Shown here one piece after another: positions 39,490 to 49,837 of a DNA stretch of 54,489 bases. The stretch lies in the NCBI GenBank assembly GCA_045534555.1, contig JAZSJW010000024.1, positions 1 through 54,489 of the forward strand. Reading direction: 5' to 3'. This stretch comes from Clostridia bacterium. GTDB lineage: Bacteria > Bacillota > Clostridia > Christensenellales > UBA1242. The position numbers and the translations under genes were made by a program. Every line of letters starts with the position of its first letter. Within the stretch, counting starts at the first letter, position 1. Under the pieces are notes generated by a model. The model was not told the origin of the DNA, did not search any database, and saw only the letters and a list, made by a program, of their open reading frames with translations.

Positions 39490-40140
39490 ATGGCTTTTAC
39501 TGCTAAAGATGTAGTAGATCTTAGAGAAAAAACTGGTGCAGGTATGTTAGATTGCAAAAAAGCATTAACAGAATGTAACGGTAACATGGATAAAGCTGTT
39601 GACTATCTACGTGAAAAGGGTATCGCAGCTGCTGCTAAGCGTCAATCAAGAATTGCTGCTGAAGGTGCTGTGTTCTCATATATTCACATGAACGGAACAA
39701 TTGGTGTTTTGCTTGAAGTAAACTGTGAAACAGACTTCGTTGCAAAAAGTCCTGCATTCCAAGAATTAGGTCACGATATTGCAATGCATATCGCTGCAGC
39801 TAATCCAAAATATGTAACTATTGAAGAAGTAGATATAACAGAACTTGAGAAAGAAAAAGAAATTTTAAAAGCGCAAGCTTTAAATGAAGGTAAGCCAGCT
39901 GCTGTTGTTGATAAAATGGTTGAAGGAAGAATTAAAAAATTCTATAAAGAAGTTTGTCTTTTAGAACAAGAATTTGTTAAAGACCCTTCAAAAACAATTT
40001 CTCAACTAATTGGTGATGCTACTAACAAAATCGGTGAAAAGATTTCTATTCGTAGATTTGTTAGATTCCAAATGGGCGAAGGTTTAGAAAAGAGAAAAGA
40101 CGATTTTGCTGAAGAAGTTAAACGTCAAGCAGGAATGTAA
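39490..40140 (+). CDS. tsf: Elongation factor Ts (short form)
   Basis: [26 protein letters not shown]. Confidence 0.99.
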
Positions 40141-40154
40141 TATTTATTACAATT

Positions 40155-40185
40155 AAAATCAAGCACGATACGTGCTTGATTTTTT
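40155..40185 (+). terminator. Rho-independent terminator after tsf
   Basis: AAAATCAAGCACG-ata-CGTGCTTGATTTT. Confidence 0.9.
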
Positions 40186-40244
40186 ATTTAATATAAAACA
40201 ACATTTTATATATTTATATAAAAAGAAAATCTTTTGTAAATCAA

Positions 40245-40273
40245 TTGCTTAAAAGTGTTAAATTTAGTAAAAT
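40245..40273 (+). promoter_or_regulatory. SigA-type promoter of frr operon
   Basis: TTGCTT-N17-TAAAAT. Confidence 0.55.
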
Positions 40274-40301
40274 ATATGTAAGTAAATTTAAGGAGAATTT
40301 T

Positions 40302-40877
40302 ATGGCTATAGAAAATGAAATTATAGAAGAATTATTTTTAGAATTTGAAGATAAAAATGAAAAGGCAATTGCTCACTTAAAAAGTGAACTTTTAGCAGTT
40401 AGAGCGGGTAGGGCCAATCCTCATGTGTTAGATAAGATAACGGTTGATTATTATGGTTCACCAACACCACTTGCGCACGTTTCTAACATAAGTGTTCAAG
40501 ATGCAAGGCAACTTGTTATATCACCATGGGATATTTCTTTGGTTAAAGAAATTAACAAGGCAATTTTGGCTTCAGATATAGGATTAACTCCATCTGATGA
40601 CGGTAGGGTGATAAGACTTACTTTCCCTATGCTTACAGAAGACAGAAGAAGAGAACTTGTTAAGTCAACTAAAAAGATAGCTGAAGACACTAAAGTTATT
40701 TGTAGAAATGCTAGACGTGATATATTAGATGAGCTCAAAAAACTTAAAAAAGATGGTGATATTTCTGAAGATGATTTAGCATCATATGAAAAAGATGTTC
40801 AAAAATCTTTAGATGCTGCCTGCTTAAAAATTGATCAAATGATGGCTGAAAAAGAAAAGGAAATAATGCAGGTATAA
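40302..40877 (+). CDS. frr: Ribosome recycling factor
   Basis: VRAGRANP, VDYYGSPTPL, LTEDRRRELVK, RNARRD; SD AAGGAG before ATG 40302. Confidence 0.98.
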   Translation: MAIENEIIEELFLEFEDKNEKAIAHLKSELLAVRAGRANPHVLDKITVDYYGSPTPLAHVSNISVQDARQLVISPWDISLVKEINKAILASDIGLTPSDDGRVIRLTFPMLTEDRRRELVKSTKKIAEDTKVICRNARRDILDELKKLKKDGDISEDDLASYEKDVQKSLDAACLKIDQMMAEKEKEIMQV

Positions 40878-41104
40878 TGGTGGAAAATCAATTTAAAAAA
40901 TTTATTGGAAAACCGGCAGAATTAGCAATACAAGAATTGGAACAAGCTGGTGTTTCAGTAATTGTAACTAAAAACTCAAAAATGAAAATAGAGGCTGATT
41001 ATGAACTTGTTGTTTCTGTTAATAAAAGAGATGATAATCTAGTTGAACTTGTTGTTGGAGAGTTTTTAATAAATATTGAAAAAATTAAACCAATTAACCA
41101 ATAA
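40877..41104 (+). CDS. Small hypothetical protein, PASTA-like pattern
   Basis: Translationally coupled to frr (TAATG); FIGKPAELAIQELEQAGV.V...VVSV...VELVV resembles a PASTA unit. Confidence 0.65.
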   Translation: MVENQFKKFIGKPAELAIQELEQAGVSVIVTKNSKMKIEADYELVVSVNKRDDNLVELVVGEFLINIEKIKPINQ

Positions 41105-41150
41105 TGTTTTGTGAAAAAACGCAAAAATGCTCAAAATTAGGAGAAAAACA

Positions 41151-42050
41151 ATGTTAAAACGCACAATTACGGGATTTTTTATACTTTTGGTAACTGTAGG
41201 ATTTATACTTTTAAGGTCTGTTTCAGTTTTGTTTTTTGATGCCTTTGCTTTAGCAATAATGCTTGGTGCAACAATAGAAATGGCTTTAGCTTGTAAATTT
41301 GCAAACAAAAAAGTTAATAAGATTTTGTTATTAATTTTTCCTGTTGGATTAGTTTGTATTTATATTTTTACGAAAGGTCAAACTGCATTACTATTGCAAA
41401 TAGCACTTGTGCTTTTGATGTTTGCTATTTTAATGGCAAAAGAGTTAATAACCAATATGATTTTAAGAAGAAAAGGTGAATTACCATCTAATCAAGATGA
41501 ATTAAATTTAGGTTTATTAAAAGAAACAAAGCATACAATGGAAATTATAATTTATCCAATCGTGCTTTTAGGATTTTTATTTGGAATTAATCATCTTGGA
41601 TTAAATCTTGGCTATGTGGGAATTATTATGGTGTTTGCAATTAGCATGATGACAGATGTTTTTGCATATCTATTTGGTTCAATGATTAAAGGACCAAAAA
41701 TGGCTCCCGAAATTTCACCTAAAAAAAGTATCTCTGGAATGATTTTTGGTGCATTAGGAGGAATAATTGCTGCTGGACTTGGATATTTATTCTTTGAGAG
41801 ACTTGGATATTTAGGAAATGTATTCTCAGGTGTGAAAGATAGTTTAGTAATAGTAATTTTTGTTGTTATGGGTGTTGTTGGAACATTCTTAACTCAATTT
41901 GGTGATTTAGTTGCTTCAGCATATAAAAGAAAAGTTGGAATTAAAGATTTTGGTTCGATATTCCCTGGACATGGTGGGTTTATGGACAGAGTAGATGGCT
42001 TAATGTTTACAAGCGCACTTGTTTACATTTTGTTATCATTACTTGTATAA
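41151..42050 (+). CDS. cdsA: Phosphatidate cytidylyltransferase
   Basis: TDVFAYLFG, ISPKKS, GDLVASAYKRKVGIKDFG.IFPGHGGFMDRVD. Confidence 0.96.
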   Translation: MLKRTITGFFILLVTVGFILLRSVSVLFFDAFALAIMLGATIEMALACKFANKKVNKILLLIFPVGLVCIYIFTKGQTALLLQIALVLLMFAILMAKELITNMILRRKGELPSNQDELNLGLLKETKHTMEIIIYPIVLLGFLFGINHLGLNLGYVGIIMVFAISMMTDVFAYLFGSMIKGPKMAPEISPKKSISGMIFGALGGIIAAGLGYLFFERLGYLGNVFSGVKDSLVIVIFVVMGVVGTFLTQFGDLVASAYKRKVGIKDFGSIFPGHGGFMDRVDGLMFTSALVYILLSLLV

Positions 42051-42065
42051 TAAAGGACGGTTGAA

Positions 42066-43319
42066 ATGAGTTTTTTATACATTTTATTAGCTTTAGCGGT
42101 TTTACTTGTGTTAATAACTGTGCATGAGTTTGGGCACTATGTTGCAGGGAAAATGCTAGGTTTTAAAATAAATGAGTTTGCGATAGGTTTTGGTCCTAAA
42201 ATTTTTAGTAGGACAAATAAAAAAACAGGCGAAGTTTTTTCTATTAGAGTTTTGCCTTTAGGCGGTTTTTGTGCTTTTGAGGGTGAGGACGAAGATAATC
42301 CAAATCCAGATGCTTTTAATAACAAAAAGCCATGGAAAAGATTAATTGTCTTGGTTTCAGGTGTTTTATTCAATTTTCTATTTGGAATTATTACTGCGGT
42401 AATATTTTTAAATGTAAATGGATATGCGTTGCCTTGCATTGCTGATTTTTCACCAAATAATCTAAATGAGGGATTATTAAAGAAAGGTGATATTATAACT
42501 GAGGTAAATGGCAAAAGTTTAGAAATTTATCGATCTATGTCTGACCTTACTAAAAAAATAGAAAAAGGTGAAAATATTACTATTACAGTAAGAAGAAATG
42601 GCGAAATTGTAAAAGTAAAGAATGTTCAAAAATATACAACAGAGGCATTTTTCTTTGTTTCAAAAACAGGTAGTATTGAGGGAAAGATATTTGATAATAC
42701 TTTAACTAATGCTTGGTCTGTTGAGGAATTTAAAGCATATATAAAATCAATAGAGCCAAATAAAGATACTGAAACTGGAAAGTATGATAAATTCACACAC
42801 AACGGTATGTTCTATAAATCAGATGGGACAATATATACAGATGATGAGCTTATTAAACTTGCAGGAATAACTTTATCTACACCTGCGGATACTATGGGTT
42901 TTATATATTACAATGTTCAAGAACATTATGGTTTTTTTGAGAGTTTGTTGAAGGCTTGGCCATTTTGTTTCTATATTTGTTGGTTAATTTTGTCTGCATT
43001 AGGTGGGTTATTCACTGGGGCAACTGCGGTTGCAGAGCTTGGAGGAACGGTAACAGCAATTTCACAAATTGCAGAAATTTCACAAGTTGGTTTAACATCA
43101 TTTTTACTATTGTTGCCGATGTTATCAATGAATTTAGCATTATTTAATATACTGCCGATACCTGCTTTAGATGGTGCTCGGTGTGTATTTGTTGGTATAG
43201 AATGGGTTGCAAGAAAACCTGTGCCAAGAAAGATAGAGAATATTATTCACACAATAGGTTTATTTGTTCTATTAGGACTGGTCGTATTTCTTGATGTTTA
43301 TCACTTTTTTATAGCATAA
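42066..43319 (+). CDS. rseP: RseP/RasP M50 intramembrane zinc metalloprotease with PDZ domain
   Basis: HEFGH, FAIGFGP, LPLGGF, PDZ GLLKKGDII.EVNG, NILPIPALDG. Confidence 0.95.
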   Translation: MSFLYILLALAVLLVLITVHEFGHYVAGKMLGFKINEFAIGFGPKIFSRTNKKTGEVFSIRVLPLGGFCAFEGEDEDNPNPDAFNNKKPWKRLIVLVSGVLFNFLFGIITAVIFLNVNGYALPCIADFSPNNLNEGLLKKGDIITEVNGKSLEIYRSMSDLTKKIEKGENITITVRRNGEIVKVKNVQKYTTEAFFFVSKTGSIEGKIFDNTLTNAWSVEEFKAYIKSIEPNKDTETGKYDKFTHNGMFYKSDGTIYTDDELIKLAGITLSTPADTMGFIYYNVQEHYGFFESLLKAWPFCFYICWLILSALGGLFTGATAVAELGGTVTAISQIAEISQVGLTSFLLLLPMLSMNLALFNILPIPALDGARCVFVGIEWVARKPVPRKIENIIHTIGLFVLLGLVVFLDVYHFFIA

Positions 43320-43347
43320 AACATAATAAATTTAACTTGGGATTAAA

Positions 43348-45012
43348 ATGGGAAAACTTGAGCTAGAAAACATATTAAATGAAAAGACTGGTAATTGCTT
43401 TGGCTTTAAATTAAAGTCGGCATCGCTTGAAAAAGCTACCGGTCTTTGTTTTGTTGACTTTTTTTATAATGACGGAACGATACTTTCGCAAGAAAAAAGA
43501 AATGAAGCAGAGGATATTTTAAAGAGTATTTTACCAAAAGGCTTTGAATATGAAATAAAATTTACTAAAAACTTTGTGGTTAATGAGTCTGTGGAAAATA
43601 TAATTCGAGAATTTTTTAAACATAAATTTCCATCAGTTTTATATAATATTTTAAAAATAGATTGTGAGCAAGAAAATAAGCATATTGAGATTGGTGTTGA
43701 AGAAAAAGTTTATGACTATGTTTTAGACCATAAGGTAGAAAAAGTTTTTGAAGATTATCTTAAAGAGTGTTTTATGGCAGATATTAAGGTAACAATAAAA
43801 GTTGATGCTGGTTATCGTGAGATAGTTGTTGAAGAACAAGACTTTGATTTTGAAATATTTGATCCGGCAAAAAGTGAAGATAGGTTTATTGAGGTAACAG
43901 AAGTTGAACCTTTGGTTGGAGAATTTAAAGATGCTTTAGCATATTATATAAAAGATAAAAAAGTACCAGAAGACAATGTTGTAGTTTGTGGAAAAATTTT
44001 ATTTATAAAAGAATATGCTTATCAAGTTAAATCAAAAGCAATAAAAGAGGAGAAAGAAAACAAAACAGATAATGTTCAAAAAGATCAAGAAGAAAAACAA
44101 ATAGAAGAAGTTACCAATGATGCTAATAGTGTAAATGAAGAAGAACATAAAAACGAACGAAAATATTTTAAGTTTAGTATAGAAGATTTTACAGGAAAGT
44201 TATCTTGTGTATTCTTTGCAAATAAAAACAATGTAGAGTTAATGCATAAGCTAGAACCTGGTCATACTGTTATTATTGAGGGTAAACTAGAACCTGATAC
44301 TTATTCTGGTGGTGTAAGTATGAGGGTTAAAAATATTAGTAAGTGTGTATTGCCTGAAACTTTTGAAGAGAAAATTAATTACAAACCAGAACCTAAATCA
44401 TATAAATTTGTGTTTCCTGAAAAAGTGGAACTTTATACTCAAGGTGATTTGTTCTCAGTTGAAGAAAAAAAAGTTGATGAGTTTTTGCTTAACAATGATG
44501 TTGTTGTTTTCGACTTTGAAACTACAGGTTTAAACTTAGATGGGTCGGATAAAATTATTGAGATAGGTGCTGTAAAGGTTGTAAAAGGTAAAATTACAGA
44601 AAAGTTTATGTGTTTTATAGACCCTGAAATGAAAATACCAGCAGAAGCTAGTAAAATTCATGGAATATTCGATGTTGATGTAAAGGGTGCAAATACATAT
44701 GATCAGGTGTTGGCAGACTTTTATAAATTTACAAGAAATAGTTATTTATCGGGTTACAATATAAAGGGTTTTGATATGGTGTTTTTGCAACATTTTGGAA
44801 AACTTAGTGGATATAATTTTGATAATCCGTTATTAGACGTTTATCCTTTAGCGCAAAAACTTTTGAAAGGTTTAAAGAATTATAAGCTAGGTACTGTTGC
44901 GGCTCATTTAGGTGTAGTATTAGATAATGCACACAGGGCGGTTTTTGATACAATTGCTACTGCTGAGGTTTTATTAAAGCTTTCTGAAATAGAACCGATA
45001 TCGTTAGACTAA
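43348..45012 (+). CDS. PolC-derived 3'-5' exonuclease (N-terminal region + OB fold + DEDDh exonuclease; no PHP or polymerase domain)
   Basis: OB-like FSIEDFTGKLSCVFF..GHTVIIEGKLEPDTYSG; ExoI DFETTG (D389, E391), ExoII YN..FD (D476), ExoIII HRAVFD (H529, D534); sits at the polC position between rseP and rimP. Confidence 0.85.
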   Translation: MGKLELENILNEKTGNCFGFKLKSASLEKATGLCFVDFFYNDGTILSQEKRNEAEDILKSILPKGFEYEIKFTKNFVVNESVENIIREFFKHKFPSVLYNILKIDCEQENKHIEIGVEEKVYDYVLDHKVEKVFEDYLKECFMADIKVTIKVDAGYREIVVEEQDFDFEIFDPAKSEDRFIEVTEVEPLVGEFKDALAYYIKDKKVPEDNVVVCGKILFIKEYAYQVKSKAIKEEKENKTDNVQKDQEEKQIEEVTNDANSVNEEEHKNERKYFKFSIEDFTGKLSCVFFANKNNVELMHKLEPGHTVIIEGKLEPDTYSGGVSMRVKNISKCVLPETFEEKINYKPEPKSYKFVFPEKVELYTQGDLFSVEEKKVDEFLLNNDVVVFDFETTGLNLDGSDKIIEIGAVKVVKGKITEKFMCFIDPEMKIPAEASKIHGIFDVDVKGANTYDQVLADFYKFTRNSYLSGYNIKGFDMVFLQHFGKLSGYNFDNPLLDVYPLAQKLLKGLKNYKLGTVAAHLGVVLDNAHRAVFDTIATAEVLLKLSEIEPISLD

Positions 45013-45041
45013 ATTAAACAAAAGTTTTTTTGACTAAATAC

Positions 45042-45070
45042 TTGCAAAATGGGAACTATATATGTATAAT
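45042..45070 (+). promoter_or_regulatory. SigA-type promoter of rimP-nusA-infB operon
   Basis: TTGCAA-N17-TATAAT. Confidence 0.75.
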
Positions 45071-45090
45071 ATAAGTATATCAAGCGTTTC

Positions 45091-45120
45091 TTTGGGAGTG
45101 GCAAAAATGCCACTCCTAAA
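45091..45120 (+). promoter_or_regulatory. rimP leader hairpin
   Basis: TTTGGGAGTGGCA-aaaa-TGCCACTCCTAAA in the 5'UTR; a GAGTGG/CCACTC hairpin is typical upstream of rimP in Bacillota. Confidence 0.7.
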
Positions 45121-45151
45121 ATTTTGATTAAAAAAAGATAAGGAGAAAAGT

Positions 45152-45613
45152 GTGGCAAACGTAAAAAAACAAGTTGAAGACTTGGTAACACCAATAGCAG
45201 ATGAGTTAGGCCTAGAGATTGTTGAAGTTGCTTTTGAAAAGAAATATGACGGCATGAATTTAACGATTTACATTGATAAGAAAGGTGGTGTAAATCTAGA
45301 TGATTGTGAAGCCTTTCATAAAGCGATTGATGAGCCTCTAGATGAGTTAGACCCAACTAACGGAAGCTCATATACATTAAATGTTTCTTCTGCGGGTCTT
45401 GATAGGGAAATAAAAACCGATAAAGATTTTGAAAGAAATATAAATGAAGTGTTAGAAATAAATTTATTTAAAAAATTGGGTCAAAGTAAAAAGTTTGTGG
45501 GTGAACTTTTAAACTTTGATGACAGTAAAGTATCAATTAAAGACAAAAAGGGTAATGTGATAGATATAGAGAGGAATATTATATCTAAAGCCACAAAGTA
45601 TATAGAATTTTAA
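45152..45613 (+). CDS. rimP: Ribosome maturation factor RimP
   Basis: LTIYIDKKGGVNLDDCE, YTLNVSSAGLDR. Confidence 0.96.
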   Translation: MANVKKQVEDLVTPIADELGLEIVEVAFEKKYDGMNLTIYIDKKGGVNLDDCEAFHKAIDEPLDELDPTNGSSYTLNVSSAGLDREIKTDKDFERNINEVLEINLFKKLGQSKKFVGELLNFDDSKVSIKDKKGNVIDIERNIISKATKYIEF

Positions 45614-45626
45614 GGAGAATAGAAAA

Positions 45627-46757
45627 GTGACAAATAAAGATTTCTTTCTTGCTCTAGATGAGCTTGAAAAACAAAAGGGTATTAAAAAAGAGTTTTTTAT
45701 CGAAACATTAGAAAGTGCATTAGTTGCAGCTTATAAAAAGAATTTTGGAGAATCAAAAGCGGTTACTGTAAAATTAAACCCAGATAAGAATACAATTAAA
45801 GTAATAGCTTATAAAACTGTTGTAGAAGTAGTTGAAGATCCAGATACACAAATTGCTTTAGAAGAAGCTAAACTAATCAAAAAATCTTATAAAGTTGGCG
45901 ATCAAGTAAACGAGGAAATTACACCAAAAGAATTTGGTCGTATTGCTGCAGGAACAGCAAAGCAAGTTATTACTCAAAAATTAAGAGAAGCAGAAAGAAG
46001 TATTGCCTTTGGTGAATTAGAAGAAAAAGTTGATACTTTAATGGCTGGTTATATTCGCCGTCAAGAGAGTGATACTTACTACATAGAACTTGCTAATACA
46101 CAAATTGAAGGTGTATTAATGCCAAATGATCAAATTGCAAGTGAAAAATACATGATTAATGATAGAATTCGTGTATATGTTAAGAAATTAAGAGAAACAT
46201 CAAGAGGTGTTCAAGCAATTGTTTCTAGATCTAACCCAGGATTTGTAAGAAAATTGTTTGAAAACGAAGTTCCTGAAATTTCTACAGGTCACGTAGTAAT
46301 TAAAAGTATAGTACGTGATGCTGGGTATAGAACAAAAATGGCAATACACAGTGATGACCCACAAATTGATCCGCTTGGAGCATGTGTAGGTAATAAAGGA
46401 ACACGTGTAAATAGTGTTGTTTCAGAACTTGGTGGAGAAAAAGTTGATATTATTATTTGGAGCGATGACCCATTTGAATATATTGCAAGAGCTTTATCTC
46501 CAGCAACAGTAATATCTGTTGAAATTGATGAATTAAATAAATCTGCTAAGGTAATTGTTCCTGATGATAAATTATCTTTAGCAATTGGTAAGAGCGGTCA
46601 AAATGTTCGTTTAGCTGCGAAGTTAACAGGCTGGAAAATAGATGTTAAGAGCGAATCTGCTGCACTCAAAGAAGAACAAGCACCAAAAGCTCAAGAAGAA
46701 ATAATTTCTCTTGATGATCTTGATAGCATCTTTGGTTCAGTTGATATTGACGAATAA
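45627..46757 (+). CDS. nusA: Transcription termination factor NusA
   Basis: FGRIAA.TAKQVI.QKLREAER, EVPEI, GACVG, LSLAIGKSGQNVRLAAKLTGWKID. Confidence 0.99.
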   Translation: MTNKDFFLALDELEKQKGIKKEFFIETLESALVAAYKKNFGESKAVTVKLNPDKNTIKVIAYKTVVEVVEDPDTQIALEEAKLIKKSYKVGDQVNEEITPKEFGRIAAGTAKQVITQKLREAERSIAFGELEEKVDTLMAGYIRRQESDTYYIELANTQIEGVLMPNDQIASEKYMINDRIRVYVKKLRETSRGVQAIVSRSNPGFVRKLFENEVPEISTGHVVIKSIVRDAGYRTKMAIHSDDPQIDPLGACVGNKGTRVNSVVSELGGEKVDIIIWSDDPFEYIARALSPATVISVEIDELNKSAKVIVPDDKLSLAIGKSGQNVRLAAKLTGWKIDVKSESAALKEEQAPKAQEEIISLDDLDSIFGSVDIDE

Positions 46758-46759
46758 TA

Positions 46760-47020
46760 TTGGAGAAAAACATGAAAAAACCTGAAAGAACATGTGCCAT
46801 CTGCAGAAAGAAGGCTGAGAAGGGAGCTTTCATTCGTGTAGTTAGGCTGGTTGATGGGCAAATACAAATTGACGTTACTCACAAAAGAGATGGTCGAGGA
46901 ATGTATATTTGTAATACAGAAGAATGCATATCAAAAGCAATAAAAACAAGAGCTATATCAAGAGTGTTTAAAAAAGATGTTGGTAATCAAATTTATGATG
47001 ATTTAGGTGGCTTGTTATGA
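46760..47020 (+). CDS. ylxR: YlxR/RnpM family RNA-binding protein
   Basis: PERTCAICR, GRGMYIC...C; position after nusA. The start may be ATG 46772. Confidence 0.92.
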   Translation: MEKNMKKPERTCAICRKKAEKGAFIRVVRLVDGQIQIDVTHKRDGRGMYICNTEECISKAIKTRAISRVFKKDVGNQIYDDLGGLL

Positions 47021-47301
47021 AGGTAGACAAGATTAAAGCTTATGTTGGGTTTGCAATAAAATCCAAAAGCATATTGTTTGGTTTAGATAAAATCAAAGAA
47101 AAGAAGGTTGAGATTATTATCTTTAGTGAGCAATTATCAAAATCATCAACTATTGATTTGAGAAAGATTGCAGAAAAAAATGATTGCAAATGTATTGAAA
47201 TAAAAAATGAAGAAATGCTAACTCTTGTTGGCAGTGAAAAAGTAAAAGCTTTTGCTATTCAGAATAAAGAATTGGCTAAAGCCATAGAAAGTAATATTTA
47301 A
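47017..47301 (+). CDS. L7Ae-family (YlxQ-like) RNA-binding protein
   Basis: YVGFAIKSKSILFG...AFAIQNKELAKAI; located between ylxR and infB. Confidence 0.8.
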   Translation: MKVDKIKAYVGFAIKSKSILFGLDKIKEKKVEIIIFSEQLSKSSTIDLRKIAEKNDCKCIEIKNEEMLTLVGSEKVKAFAIQNKELAKAIESNI

Positions 47302-47323
47302 CTTAGAATTTGGAGGGAAAAAA

Positions 47324-49837
47324 TTGGTGAATACCGATAAAACTCAAGGAAAGACACAGTTTGAAAGTATAAAAAAGATGCAAGAACTAATGCAAAAAAA
47401 TGCATTAGGTAATTTGAGTGCAAATTTGAAAAGGGCTAGAGCGAGACTAGACCAATTATCAGTAAGTTTTAACCAAAAACGCGAAAAATTAATGAAGGAA
47501 AGTAGTGTTAAGGTTAATATACAAGAGCCTGCACAAGTAAAGGTTGAAGCAAAGGTTAAAGAAGTTTCGGAAAAATCGACTTCACCGACAACAGTTTCTG
47601 TTCAAGAAAGACGTTCTGTAAATAATTCTCAAATGCAAACTCATCAACCAATGCAGAGACAAGGTGGAGGTTTTGCTGATAGAAATGTTCGTAATTTTGG
47701 TCAGAGTGCTCAAAAACAAGGTTTTGGTGCAAGGCAAAATGCTAATAATGGTCAAAGGACTAACGGTGGTTTTAATAAACCATCTAGTTTTGCTGGCAGA
47801 CAAAATCAAGTTAATGTTCAAAAACAAGGTCTTGGTAGAATTTCAAATGCAGATAAAATAGATGCTAGTACTTTAATAAAACCAAATTCTATGGTTAATC
47901 ATACACAAGCAAAGAAGAAAAACTTTGATAGTAAAGCAAGTGACGATAAAAAATCAATGAACAAAAAAGCACTCGTTATGCGCGGTTATGTTGAAGACGA
48001 TACTTTGTTTGATGATGGCGAAAGAATGGGTTCTAAAAAACGTGGTAAAAAACAAAAAGAAGCAGCTCCAGTAGTTGTTGCTCCAAAGATTGAGCATGCT
48101 GTTATTACAACAGATAATTTGACTGTTAAAGTTTTGGCAGAAAAAATTGGTAGACCAGTAGCAGAAATAATGAGTAAGTTCTTGCTTTTGGGTATGATGG
48201 TTAATATAAACAGTAATATTGACTATGATTCAGCAGAGCTTATTGCTTCAGAATTGGGTGTTACATTAGAGAGAAAGGTAGAAAAAACAGCAGAAGAACA
48301 ACTTGCAGATATTTATAGTGCTGAAAGTGATGATGAAAAATCATTAAAGAAAAGACCTCCAGTTGTTACAGTTATGGGTCACGTTGACCATGGTAAAACA
48401 TCTCTTCTTGACTATATCCGTAAAAGCAATGTAATTTCAGGAGAAGCAGGCGGAATTACTCAACATATTGGTGCATATCAAATTCAAGTTAATGGCGAAA
48501 TTGTAACATTTATTGATACTCCGGGTCACGCAGCTTTTGATGCGATGAGAAAACGTGGTGCGAGTTTAACAGACGTTGCGATTTTGGTTGTTGCAGCTGA
48601 TGATGGTGTTATGCCACAGACAAAAGAGTCTATCAAATTTATTAAAGAAGCAAACGTTCCAATGATTGTTGCTATTAATAAAATAGATGTTAAAACAGCT
48701 AATGTTGATAGAGTAAAAGAACAACTTGCCGCTGAAGGAGTTATGCCTGAAGAATGGGGCGGAGAAACAATCATGGTTCCTATCTCAGCTAAGCAAGGAT
48801 TAAATGTAGATAAGCTTTTAGAGATGGTATTATTTGTTGCGGAATATCAAAATTTAAGAGCAAATGCAGATAGAAAAGCTTCAGGTAGCATTATTGAAGC
48901 TAGACTTGATAAAGGTATGGGAACTGTTGCTACAGTACTTGTTCAAAACGGAACATTAAATGTTGGTGATATCGTAGTTGCGGGAACTGCTACAGGTAAA
49001 GTTAGAGCTATGATTAATGAAAAGGGAGCTCATGTCAAGAAAGCTGGACCATCAACACCTGTTGCAATTTTAGGTCTAAGTTCGGTTCCAAATGCGGGTG
49101 ACCAATTATATGTCGTTGATGAAAAATTCTCAAAACAAATTTTAACTGAAAGAACAAACAAACAAAAGACAAGCATGATTAAAGCTGAAGACTTATCGTT
49201 AGATAATCTTCTCAATAAAATAGCCGACAGTAACTATAAAGACTATAATGTTATCATTAAAGGCGATGTTCAAGGTTCAATTGAGGCATTAAAACAATCT
49301 CTTTCTGTAATTAAAAATGACGAAGTAAAAGTTAGATGTATACATGGTGGTGTTGGTGCAATTAATGAAAATGATATTATGCTTGCAGAGGCATCTCATG
49401 CAGTTGTAATTGGATTTAATGTAAAACCAGATGCAAAAGCTAAAAATATGGCTGAAAAAGCAAAAGTAGACATTAAATTCTTTAGAATTATTTATGAAGC
49501 AATTGATTTTGTAACAGAAGAAATTGATAAATTAATGGCTCCAAAATATAGAGAAGTTATTACTGGGCATGCTGAAGTTAGAGCTTTATTCAAAGCAAGC
49601 AAGGTTGGAATTATTGCAGGTTCTTATGTTCTTGATGGAAAAATTACTAAAAATAGCAAAGCAAGAGTATCTAGAAACGGAAAACAAATTTATGAAGGCT
49701 CAATAGCAACTCTTCAAAGAGAGAAAAATGAAGTTAAAGAAGTTAATACAGGTTTTGAATTTGGTACAACTCTTCAAGGTTTCTCAGATATTCAAGTAGG
49801 GGATATTATTGAAACTTATGCTCTAGAAAGAATTTAA
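47324..49837 (+). CDS. infB: Translation initiation factor IF-2
   Basis: RPPVVTVMGHVDHGKTSLLD, EAGGITQHIGAY, DTPGHAAF, NKID. Confidence 0.99.
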   Translation: MVNTDKTQGKTQFESIKKMQELMQKNALGNLSANLKRARARLDQLSVSFNQKREKLMKESSVKVNIQEPAQVKVEAKVKEVSEKSTSPTTVSVQERRSVNNSQMQTHQPMQRQGGGFADRNVRNFGQSAQKQGFGARQNANNGQRTNGGFNKPSSFAGRQNQVNVQKQGLGRISNADKIDASTLIKPNSMVNHTQAKKKNFDSKASDDKKSMNKKALVMRGYVEDDTLFDDGERMGSKKRGKKQKEAAPVVVAPKIEHAVITTDNLTVKVLAEKIGRPVAEIMSKFLLLGMMVNINSNIDYDSAELIASELGVTLERKVEKTAEEQLADIYSAESDDEKSLKKRPPVVTVMGHVDHGKTSLLDYIRKSNVISGEAGGITQHIGAYQIQVNGEIVTFIDTPGHAAFDAMRKRGASLTDVAILVVAADDGVMPQTKESIKFIKEANVPMIVAINKIDVKTANVDRVKEQLAAEGVMPEEWGGETIMVPISAKQGLNVDKLLEMVLFVAEYQNLRANADRKASGSIIEARLDKGMGTVATVLVQNGTLNVGDIVVAGTATGKVRAMINEKGAHVKKAGPSTPVAILGLSSVPNAGDQLYVVDEKFSKQILTERTNKQKTSMIKAEDLSLDNLLNKIADSNYKDYNVIIKGDVQGSIEALKQSLSVIKNDEVKVRCIHGGVGAINENDIMLAEASHAVVIGFNVKPDAKAKNMAEKAKVDIKFFRIIYEAIDFVTEEIDKLMAPKYREVITGHAEVRALFKASKVGIIAGSYVLDGKITKNSKARVSRNGKQIYEGSIATLQREKNEVKEVNTGFEFGTTLQGFSDIQVGDIIETYALERI

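Follow-up and report, generated by a model that had tools for sequence, protein, structure and literature searches.

Three replicase set-ups are recognised in bacteria, namely DnaE1 alone, PolC with DnaE1 and PolC with DnaE3 (Timinskas et al., 2014, PMC3919608; PMC12926913). Some Clostridia are reported to use DnaE1 only, and some clostridial PolCs to lack the exonuclease insert (PMC3919608). In Bacillus subtilis the PolC exonuclease is described as complementing DnaE3 in trans (PMC12926913; the topic also of PMC5627055), and the mycobacterial DnaQ as binding the beta clamp via a Q[Y/L]ALF motif and cooperating with a PHP proofreader (PMC11348249). Here we describe a locus that displays the same plasticity of the PolC and DnaE1 system as the exonuclease-less PolCs and the DnaE1-only Clostridia (PMC3919608), and is the converse of the former: the exonuclease was kept and the polymerase was lost. 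The locus lies on contig JAZSJW010000024.1 of the genome of a Clostridia bacterium (GCA_045534555.1; Christensenellales, UBA1242), which was analysed over its whole stretch of 54,489 nucleotides (hereafter the window). It encodes a protein of 554 amino acids (aa) at the position where polC is expected, which we call mini-PolC.

The survey of Timinskas et al. (2014) dropped fragments without a polymerase active site (PMC3919608), and polymerase surveys of this kind would therefore miss mini-PolC. A survey of complete genomes from 2026 mentions, in the portion of its text that was available, no PolC remnant among its three combinations (PMC12926913). Our literature search, which included full text and left subscription papers and survey supplements aside, found no description of a polymerase-less PolC.

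Anatomy of mini-PolC and its descent from PolC

The mini-polC open reading frame (ORF) is intact, starts with ATG and runs for 554 codons plus a stop between rseP and rimP; the ORF list bears out the earlier note, made from the sequence alone, that had drawn attention to it. Mini-PolC shares with PolC (NF001688, TIGR01405) a homologous N-terminal domain, an OB fold and a DEDDh exonuclease, is encoded at the same locus and nests in the PolC clade of its order. It differs in that the PHP domain, palm, thumb, fingers, HhH and C-terminal part are missing, and in that a new conserved linker replaces the N-half of the PHP domain. The best NCBIfam models for mini-PolC are the two PolC models, each matched in part (NF001688, 149.3 bits versus 873; TIGR01405, 140.8 versus 1043). 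NF001688 matches in two stretches, and the N-terminal part of mini-PolC corresponds to positions 51–329 of the PolC model (E-value 2.4e-7). Pfam detects the OB fold (PF01336) at residues 268–331 (E-value 1.1e-9) and RNase_T (PF00929) at residues 386–542 (E-value 4.5e-32; 112.3 bits, cut-off 24). Neither Pfam nor alignment to full PolC revealed a PHP domain, a PF07733 polymerase core, fingers, HhH or the C-terminal part in mini-PolC, and the C-half of the PHP domain is absent as well. The earlier note had postulated two precise deletions around a preserved exonuclease. This is roughly right: everything after the exonuclease is gone, and in place of the N-half of the PHP domain stands a linker that shows no significant similarity to it.

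The AlphaFold2 model of mini-PolC has a mean predicted local distance difference test (pLDDT) value of 87.1 and a predicted template modelling score of 0.58, with a pLDDT of about 90 or more in the N-terminal domain. Its best fold match in Foldseek is a PolC chain (9qpc_A, E-value 1.3e-17, 420 columns). The best solved relative of the exonuclease is likewise a PolC exonuclease (2p1j, E-value 5.5e-54); the fold also matches 1j53, 2gui and 5fku_D, and a DinG-fused exonuclease and ExoX are among the close relatives. All DEDDh catalytic residues are present, as the earlier note had read them: D389, E391, D476, H529 and D534 show no exception among the close homologs (119/119) or among the copies from relatives (66/66). 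The exonuclease is the most conserved region (pooled pairwise identity 0.59; 73 of 164 columns with at least 80%), and the insert in the OB fold scores 0.19. This charged insert is present in the window's genus and is absent or short in other families. N-terminal subdomain I reaches 0.38 versus 0.22 for the second subdomain, and together with the OB fold it is conserved as well as the linker (0.38–0.43).

The relationship of the N-terminal half to PolC, on which the reading in the earlier note depended, was borne out by profile comparison: residues 1–175 aligned with the N-terminal domains of the order's full PolCs in hhalign with a probability of 94.8% (E-value 5.2e-8, 132 columns). Among 82 members of the mini-PolC family, Pfam assigned PF01336 in 79; in their N-terminal domains PF14480 was found in none and PF11490 in one. 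The nearest Atlas clusters to the N-terminal domain carry PF14480 and PF11490. Timinskas and Venclovas reportedly likened the N-terminal domain of PolC to the fold of tau domain V in 2011. No such fold was found for this domain among the 50 chains listed by Foldseek for the whole model and for the model of N-terminal domain plus OB fold, where OB and exonuclease matches dominate.

The order of N-terminal domain, OB fold and exonuclease holds as it had been read from the sequence, with the correction that OB fold and exonuclease are not immediately adjacent but separated by a conserved linker of about 50 residues (335–384). In the 119 homologs Y352 of this linker is invariant and P357, Q365 and L368 are nearly so (Q365 in 119/119, L368 in 118/119). 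The latter two belong to a motif, Q-x-x-[LIMF]-[FL], that is present in 58 of 66 relatives and resembles the QL[SD]LF-type consensus for binding of the sliding clamp. The linker was also considered as a shrunken N-half of the PHP domain. A first alignment had set its 'FPE' beneath 'FPEA' of PolC; profile–profile comparison gave no backing for this and aligned only the first strand of the exonuclease (10 columns, probability 64.7%).

Like Escherichia coli DnaQ (epsilon), mini-PolC is a stand-alone DEDDh exonuclease of the proofreading type in a DnaE1-only organism, and it passes the epsilon-family domain model TIGR00573 (97.1 versus 71.5 bits). Epsilon equivalog models were not reached (e.g., TIGR01406, 77.4 versus 222.7 bits). 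In contrast to DnaQ, mini-PolC ends 6–12 residues past the last exonuclease helix and has no C-terminal tail of the kind that binds the PHP domain of alpha; it carries the N-terminal pair of PolC and the OB fold, and comes from PolC and not from dnaQ. The E. coli epsilon subunit carries a clamp-binding motif adjoining its exonuclease, and the PHP domain of E. coli DnaE is inactive, in contrast to the intact PHP site in DnaE1 of the genomes with mini-PolC.

The gene order rseP-X-rimP-nusA is common to mini-PolC and full PolC of the order, the upstream neighbour being judged by ORF sizes and order. In a tree the 62 mini-PolC rows form one clade (Shimodaira–Hasegawa-like approximate likelihood ratio test (SH-aLRT) 100, stem 0.78) nested among the full PolCs of the order. 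This tree is built from 508 shared columns by a quick search under LG+G4 with an outgroup root, PHP columns being excluded as fewer than 60% of the rows fill them, and its deep order is insecure. Synteny, the tree, N-terminal homology and PolC as the best structural match support descent of mini-PolC from PolC, and a single origin is not contradicted. In the scenario that we propose, an ancestor of a large branch of Christensenellales-like gut Clostridia would have lost the PHP and polymerase modules of PolC once. The same ancestor would have passed replication to a DnaE1 that combined an intact PHP site and a clamp-binding motif with an OB fold and a C-terminal domain.

Polymerase complement, distribution and further reduction

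The window's own genome is a draft of 941 kb in 45 contigs (81.8% complete). Its single PF07733 match is a DnaE of 1217 aa on another contig, NF001688 gave no match at PolC level, and mini-PolC is the sole match to the RNase_T family. Because this genome is incomplete, we relied on its relatives. In a sample of 41 genomes from the family and order, all 30 without a full PolC frame have one DnaE, which in G005 is split over two contigs, and all 10 with a PolC frame of 1416–1474 aa have both PolC and DnaE. Near-closed PolC-less genomes (1–9 contigs, some of them single-contig) also have one DnaE. A split polC or a second polymerase was searched for with NF001688 and PF07733 in the own genome, 40 relatives and five near-closed genomes, and none was found. 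This part of the earlier reading, with DnaE as the only polymerase, is supported: neither polC, whole or split, nor another polymerase half turned up in the genome or its relatives. One extra PF07733 match in the single-contig genome G255 was rejected as a polymerase, being an ORF of 313 aa in a mobile or defence-like island. This ORF (L179:4607-5548) matches only the first ~110 positions of PF07733 (46 bits) and is a stand-alone fragment of the polymerase core.

DnaE contains the nine-residue PHP signature HHDHEHCDH in 18 of 18 genomes examined (10/10 of the mini type and 8/8 of the PolC type), a signature that is taken as the mark of an active PHP proofreader (PMC12926913). Both genome types further have in common, in their DnaE, the OB fold, the C-terminal domain and an internal clamp motif that reads Q[FMIV]S[LM]F. 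Because DnaE keeps the complete PHP metal-site signature and thus has its own candidate proofreader, mini-PolC would be at most a second one. As a separate observation, DnaE of all 10 PolC-less genomes checked has an acidic insert of ~10–25 residues just ahead of the OB fold (L009:4395-8048, G000 contig C36; L123-L131). The insert is missing in seven of eight PolC-bearing genomes of the order and partial in G025; it may reflect co-evolution with the loss of PolC.

Frames of 511–616 aa with the architecture of mini-PolC occur in 28 of the 41 genomes, and 43 further public loci from metagenome-assembled genomes (MAGs) encode mini-PolCs of 494–596 aa. At least 119 database clusters share 41–77% identity over the full length of mini-PolC; they derive from Clostridia MAGs and are labelled only 'ribonuclease H-like domain-containing protein' or '3'-5' exoribonuclease'. 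The order was surveyed in 301 genomes, each with a completeness of at least 90% apart from that of the window. PolC exceeded the curated cut-off in 145 of them and was in pieces in one. The other 155 genomes, which span 17 of 39 families, gave weak PolC matches only, and for most of these the presence of mini-PolC was inferred from the best E-value and not seen directly. Class-wide, PolC was present in 233 of 251 genomes, and eight PolC-less genomes lie outside the order. None of the five PolC-less Clostridia tested outside the order contained mini-PolC (both positive controls were matched). Other Clostridia without PolC at the curated cut-off are G386, G413, G462, G485 (family f71), G557 (f101) and G369 (f76), the five tested being those that also lack mini-PolC; these are presumably plain 'single DnaE1' Clostridia as described by Timinskas et al. 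(2014).

For the sole usable pair of sequences (G018 and L052) the ratio of nonsynonymous to synonymous substitution rates (dN/dS) was 0.07 (dN 0.088, dS 1.21); dS was saturated in four of six pairs, and the value of 0.23 for G000 and G007 was obtained at a dS of 1.6 and is unreliable. Mini-PolC is under purifying selection, and in the window's lineage this selection clearly acts on catalysis, to judge from an unvarying active site, an exonuclease that exceeds all other regions in conservation and a dN/dS of about 0.07. The expectation that the architecture is conserved in relatives and under purifying selection thus agrees with what was found.

In parts of the clade mini-PolC was reduced further. 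In two genera of the window's family the exonuclease is deleted, and the gene after rseP ends right past the OB fold. This short form measures 338 aa in G015 (91% complete), where RNase_T genes are absent altogether, and 214 aa in G012 (90% complete), whose single RNase_T match is weak and unrelated. Its 14 database relatives measure 217–335 aa and show 34–49% identity to the mini-PolC query, apart from its own cluster. The short forms make up one clade inside the mini-PolC clade (SH-aLRT 100). Their AlphaFold2 model has a pLDDT of 91.0, and Foldseek returned generic OB matches only. Five genomes from families f39 and f25 were tested, and four of them have an intact frame of 485–548 aa in which all five catalytic residues are replaced. 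These copies with a dead exonuclease still have Y352 and P357 of the linker; the C-terminal part of the f25 copy aligns poorly. The fifth genome, G107 (f25, 98% complete), had no match to the mini-PolC profile, and a sister genus has a dead-exonuclease copy; G107 may represent complete loss of the remnant. Because the exonuclease was deleted or inactivated while the N-terminal domain and OB fold persist, it is not what the clade cannot do without. The persisting part is the N-terminal domain plus OB fold, and the reduced forms, which keep it, indicate that the clade selects there for something non-catalytic as well. The view of the earlier note that PolC was converted into a stand-alone, epsilon-like proofreader is right as to descent from PolC; a role as the epsilon-like proofreader of DnaE is plausible, and mini-PolC would not be the only candidate for it, given the intact PHP signature of DnaE.

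Surroundings of the gene

Mini-polC lies 28 nt past rseP and 139 nt ahead of rimP in a gene block with the order tsf-frr-(small ORF)-cdsA-rseP-[mini-polC]-rimP-nusA-ylxR-L7Ae-like-infB (Table 1). The small ORF (75 aa, 40877–41104) between frr and cdsA occupies the position that uppS has in many Firmicutes. The promoter that the earlier note had placed about 30 nt past the stop codon was recovered as a promoter-like site by consensus match. Over the region as a whole such sites are not in excess (8 found versus a mean of 9.5 in shuffles); terminator-like sites number 2 versus 0.5 expected. The hairpin downstream of the promoter-like site lies ~30 nt upstream of the rimP start and might terminate the mini-polC transcript or serve the rimP-nusA-infB operon as a leader or attenuator. 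One gut-metagenome contig lacks 2 bases at 45105 in this hairpin.

Table 1. Features of the mini-polC locus and of the encoded protein; coordinates refer to the window and residues to mini-PolC.
Feature	Coordinates	Strand	Basis
mini-polC ORF, polymerase-less PolC remnant	43348..45012	+	ORF list, Pfam, NCBIfam; kept in relatives
PolC-type N-terminal domain, two alpha/beta subdomains, residues 1-158	43348..43821	+	hhalign, PolC model match, AlphaFold2
OB fold, residues 179-334, broken by a low-confidence charged insert	43882..44349	+	PF01336, AlphaFold2 strands, Foldseek
Lys/Glu-rich insert in OB fold, residues 231-267, predicted disordered	44038..44148	+	pLDDT below 50
Conserved linker, residues 335-384, at the place of the PHP N-half	44350..44499	+	homolog alignment, pLDDT 81-96
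QGDLF, clamp-binding-like motif Q-x-x-[LIMF]-[FL], residues 365-369	44440..44454	+	homolog conservation
DEDDh 3'-5' exonuclease domain, residues 385-548, with D389, E391, D476, H529, D534	44500..44991	+	PF00929
rseP-like site-2 protease gene, upstream neighbour as at canonical polC loci	42066..43319	+	ORF list
Promoter-like site TTGCAA-17-TATAAT, 30 nt past the mini-polC stop	45042..45070	+	consensus match only
13-bp hairpin (G+C-containing) with a T-rich run after it, between promoter-like site and rimP	45091..45120	+	sequence
rimP, downstream neighbour	45152..45613	+	ORF list
nusA, next after rimP	45627-46757	+	ORF list

The ORFs listed within 39490–49837 are on the forward strand. All 2-kb bins of the window (1–54489) show a strongly positive GC skew (0.19 to 0.36), and cumulative skew climbs steadily. 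A strong leading-strand signature thus persists in a lineage without the PolC polymerase, which bears on older proposals that connect PolC with strand bias (as in PMC5054707).

Possible roles of mini-PolC and their significance

We lean, at slightly better than an even chance, towards mini-PolC being a functional descendant of PolC without a polymerase, an accessory 3'-5' editing subunit that acts in trans on the products of DnaE1 and is tethered by its non-catalytic part. Mini-PolC would work at the replication fork and edit with its DEDDh exonuclease; it would be held there by its N-terminal domain and OB fold, probably together with the Q-x-x-[LIMF]-[FL] motif of the linker. Exonuclease activity, association with the replisome, clamp binding and proofreading in trans are all properties that we infer for mini-PolC. 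The model gains from its resemblance to the clamp-binding mycobacterial DnaQ and to the editing for DnaE3 by the PolC exonuclease in B. subtilis. The closest analogue of the proposed mechanism is the mycobacterial DnaQ, a DEDDh enzyme that adds a second proofreader to a DnaE1 with an active PHP site (PMC11348249). It differs in having a BRCT domain and a clamp motif on its C-terminal side (PMC11348249); in mini-PolC, for which Pfam gave no BRCT match, the motif precedes the exonuclease, and the origin is another one. In B. subtilis a DnaQ domain borne by PolC likewise edits the products of a DnaE-type polymerase (PMC12926913), with the difference that the exonuclease sits there in a working polymerase, which in mini-PolC is gone.

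Clamp binding was addressed by co-folding residues 335–554 with a DnaN dimer. The score was 0.35 (runs 0.35, 0.38 and 0.23) versus 0.00 for the best control, a result graded as 'weak support' and given without an interface; at least 88% of contacts are shared between runs, with a partner pLDDT of at least 75. In calibration 58 of 80 solved complexes came up to the mark, as did 2 of 110 mismatched pairs, and scores above the mark up to 0.60 comprised 7 of the 80 solved complexes and both passing mismatches. Clamp–peptide complexes are among the solved structures, so that the pass may reflect likeness to them. Several points weigh against an editing subunit of this kind. The weak grade of the co-fold is defined as 'more often wrong than right unless the guess was likely beforehand', and the linker has a pLDDT of 81–96 in the monomer model, unlike a free, disordered peptide motif. 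The PHP signature of DnaE1 is complete in 18/18, so that on the face of it no DnaQ proofreader is needed. Mini-PolC has no epsilon-type tail for binding alpha, all five other PolC-less Clostridia tested do without mini-PolC, and within its own clade the exonuclease is dispensable, having been deleted in one subclade and inactivated in f39 and f25.

Another explanation is that mini-PolC persists mainly because its N-terminal domain and OB fold have a task other than catalysis. They would serve as an adaptor to DnaE1, tau, the clamp or the single-stranded template, with the exonuclease as an optional passenger. These two domains are the module common to all descendants, and one subclade has nothing else; dead-exonuclease copies keep intact frames together with Y352 and P357 of the linker, and subdomain I and the OB fold equal the linker in conservation. 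The N-terminal domain of PolC also has no assigned function and is flexible and unresolved in the cryo-electron microscopy structure, as reported in PMC12592400. We consider this explanation rather unlikely, as the catalytic residues show no variation in the window's family or in any of the 66 copies and the exonuclease is the most conserved part, which indicates selection on catalysis. Furthermore, Foldseek found only generic OB matches for the model of N-terminal domain and OB fold, and the 98% complete genome G107 of the clade does without any mini-PolC match. A role in editing and a role of the non-catalytic module are compatible. A more general form of the adaptor idea, in which the N-terminal pair and OB fold of PolC are an autonomous replisome adaptor (to DnaE1, to the clamp or clamp loader, and to the template strand) that could not be lost even after the polymerase, the exonuclease chemistry and the exonuclease domain were discarded, is put forward tentatively, and we would sooner expect it to be wrong than right.

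A DEDDh exonuclease with an OB fold is also a generic nuclease design, with relatives such as the DinG-fused exonuclease and ExoX, and mini-PolC could be a stand-alone exonuclease for repair or processing outside the replisome (mismatch or end processing, trimming of flaps or primers), for which the OB fold would be a handle on DNA and the polC locus mere history. DnaE1 has its own PHP site, and as the only DnaQ-family nuclease in a genome of ~1 Mb mini-PolC might have taken on general duties. Such a role appears improbable, since the PolC-specific N-terminal domain and the clamp-binding-like motif were retained, mini-polC stays within the rseP-rimP-nusA-infB block, and a pure nuclease role leaves unexplained why lineages with a dead or deleted exonuclease keep the remaining parts. 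The draft state of the window's genome, with its 45 contigs and 81.8% completeness, would allow for an artefact, be it an assembly error, a pseudogene in decay or a split polC with its polymerase half at another site. This we regard as very improbable: the same frame with the same neighbours recurs in 28/41 relatives and the 43 further MAG loci, each genome has one PF07733 gene, also those of 1–9 contigs, and the active site is invariant at a dN/dS of 0.07. The suspicion of mis-assembly, which the earlier note had raised, is contradicted by this recurrence and by independent gut-metagenome contigs that bridge the junction of rseP and the start codon (X1, 43212–43640; X4, 43207–43418) and that of the stop codon and the intergenic region (X3, 44871–45053). 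No joints were reported; the contigs are short, have a depth of 2–6 and leave several bins uncovered, and no single piece spans the whole stretch.

Mini-PolC as an editing subunit would add to the mycobacterial example an independent one in which a DEDDh proofreader accompanies a DnaE1 with an active PHP site. If the adaptor reading were true, the clade would be a natural deletion series that isolates the function of the N-terminal domain and OB fold, and DnaE1 with an accessory subunit derived from PolC would constitute a fourth type of bacterial replisome. The mini-PolC proteins are small, separable objects with which the function of the N-terminal domain of PolC, an old open question (PMC12592400), can be probed. 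Antibiotics that target PolC, such as ibezapolstat (described in PMC12592400), have no target in these commensals. A large branch of uncultured, gut-associated Clostridia, which in our sample amounts to roughly half of one order, dismantled PolC stepwise, and thereby offers a natural dissection of the roles that PolC has besides polymerisation.

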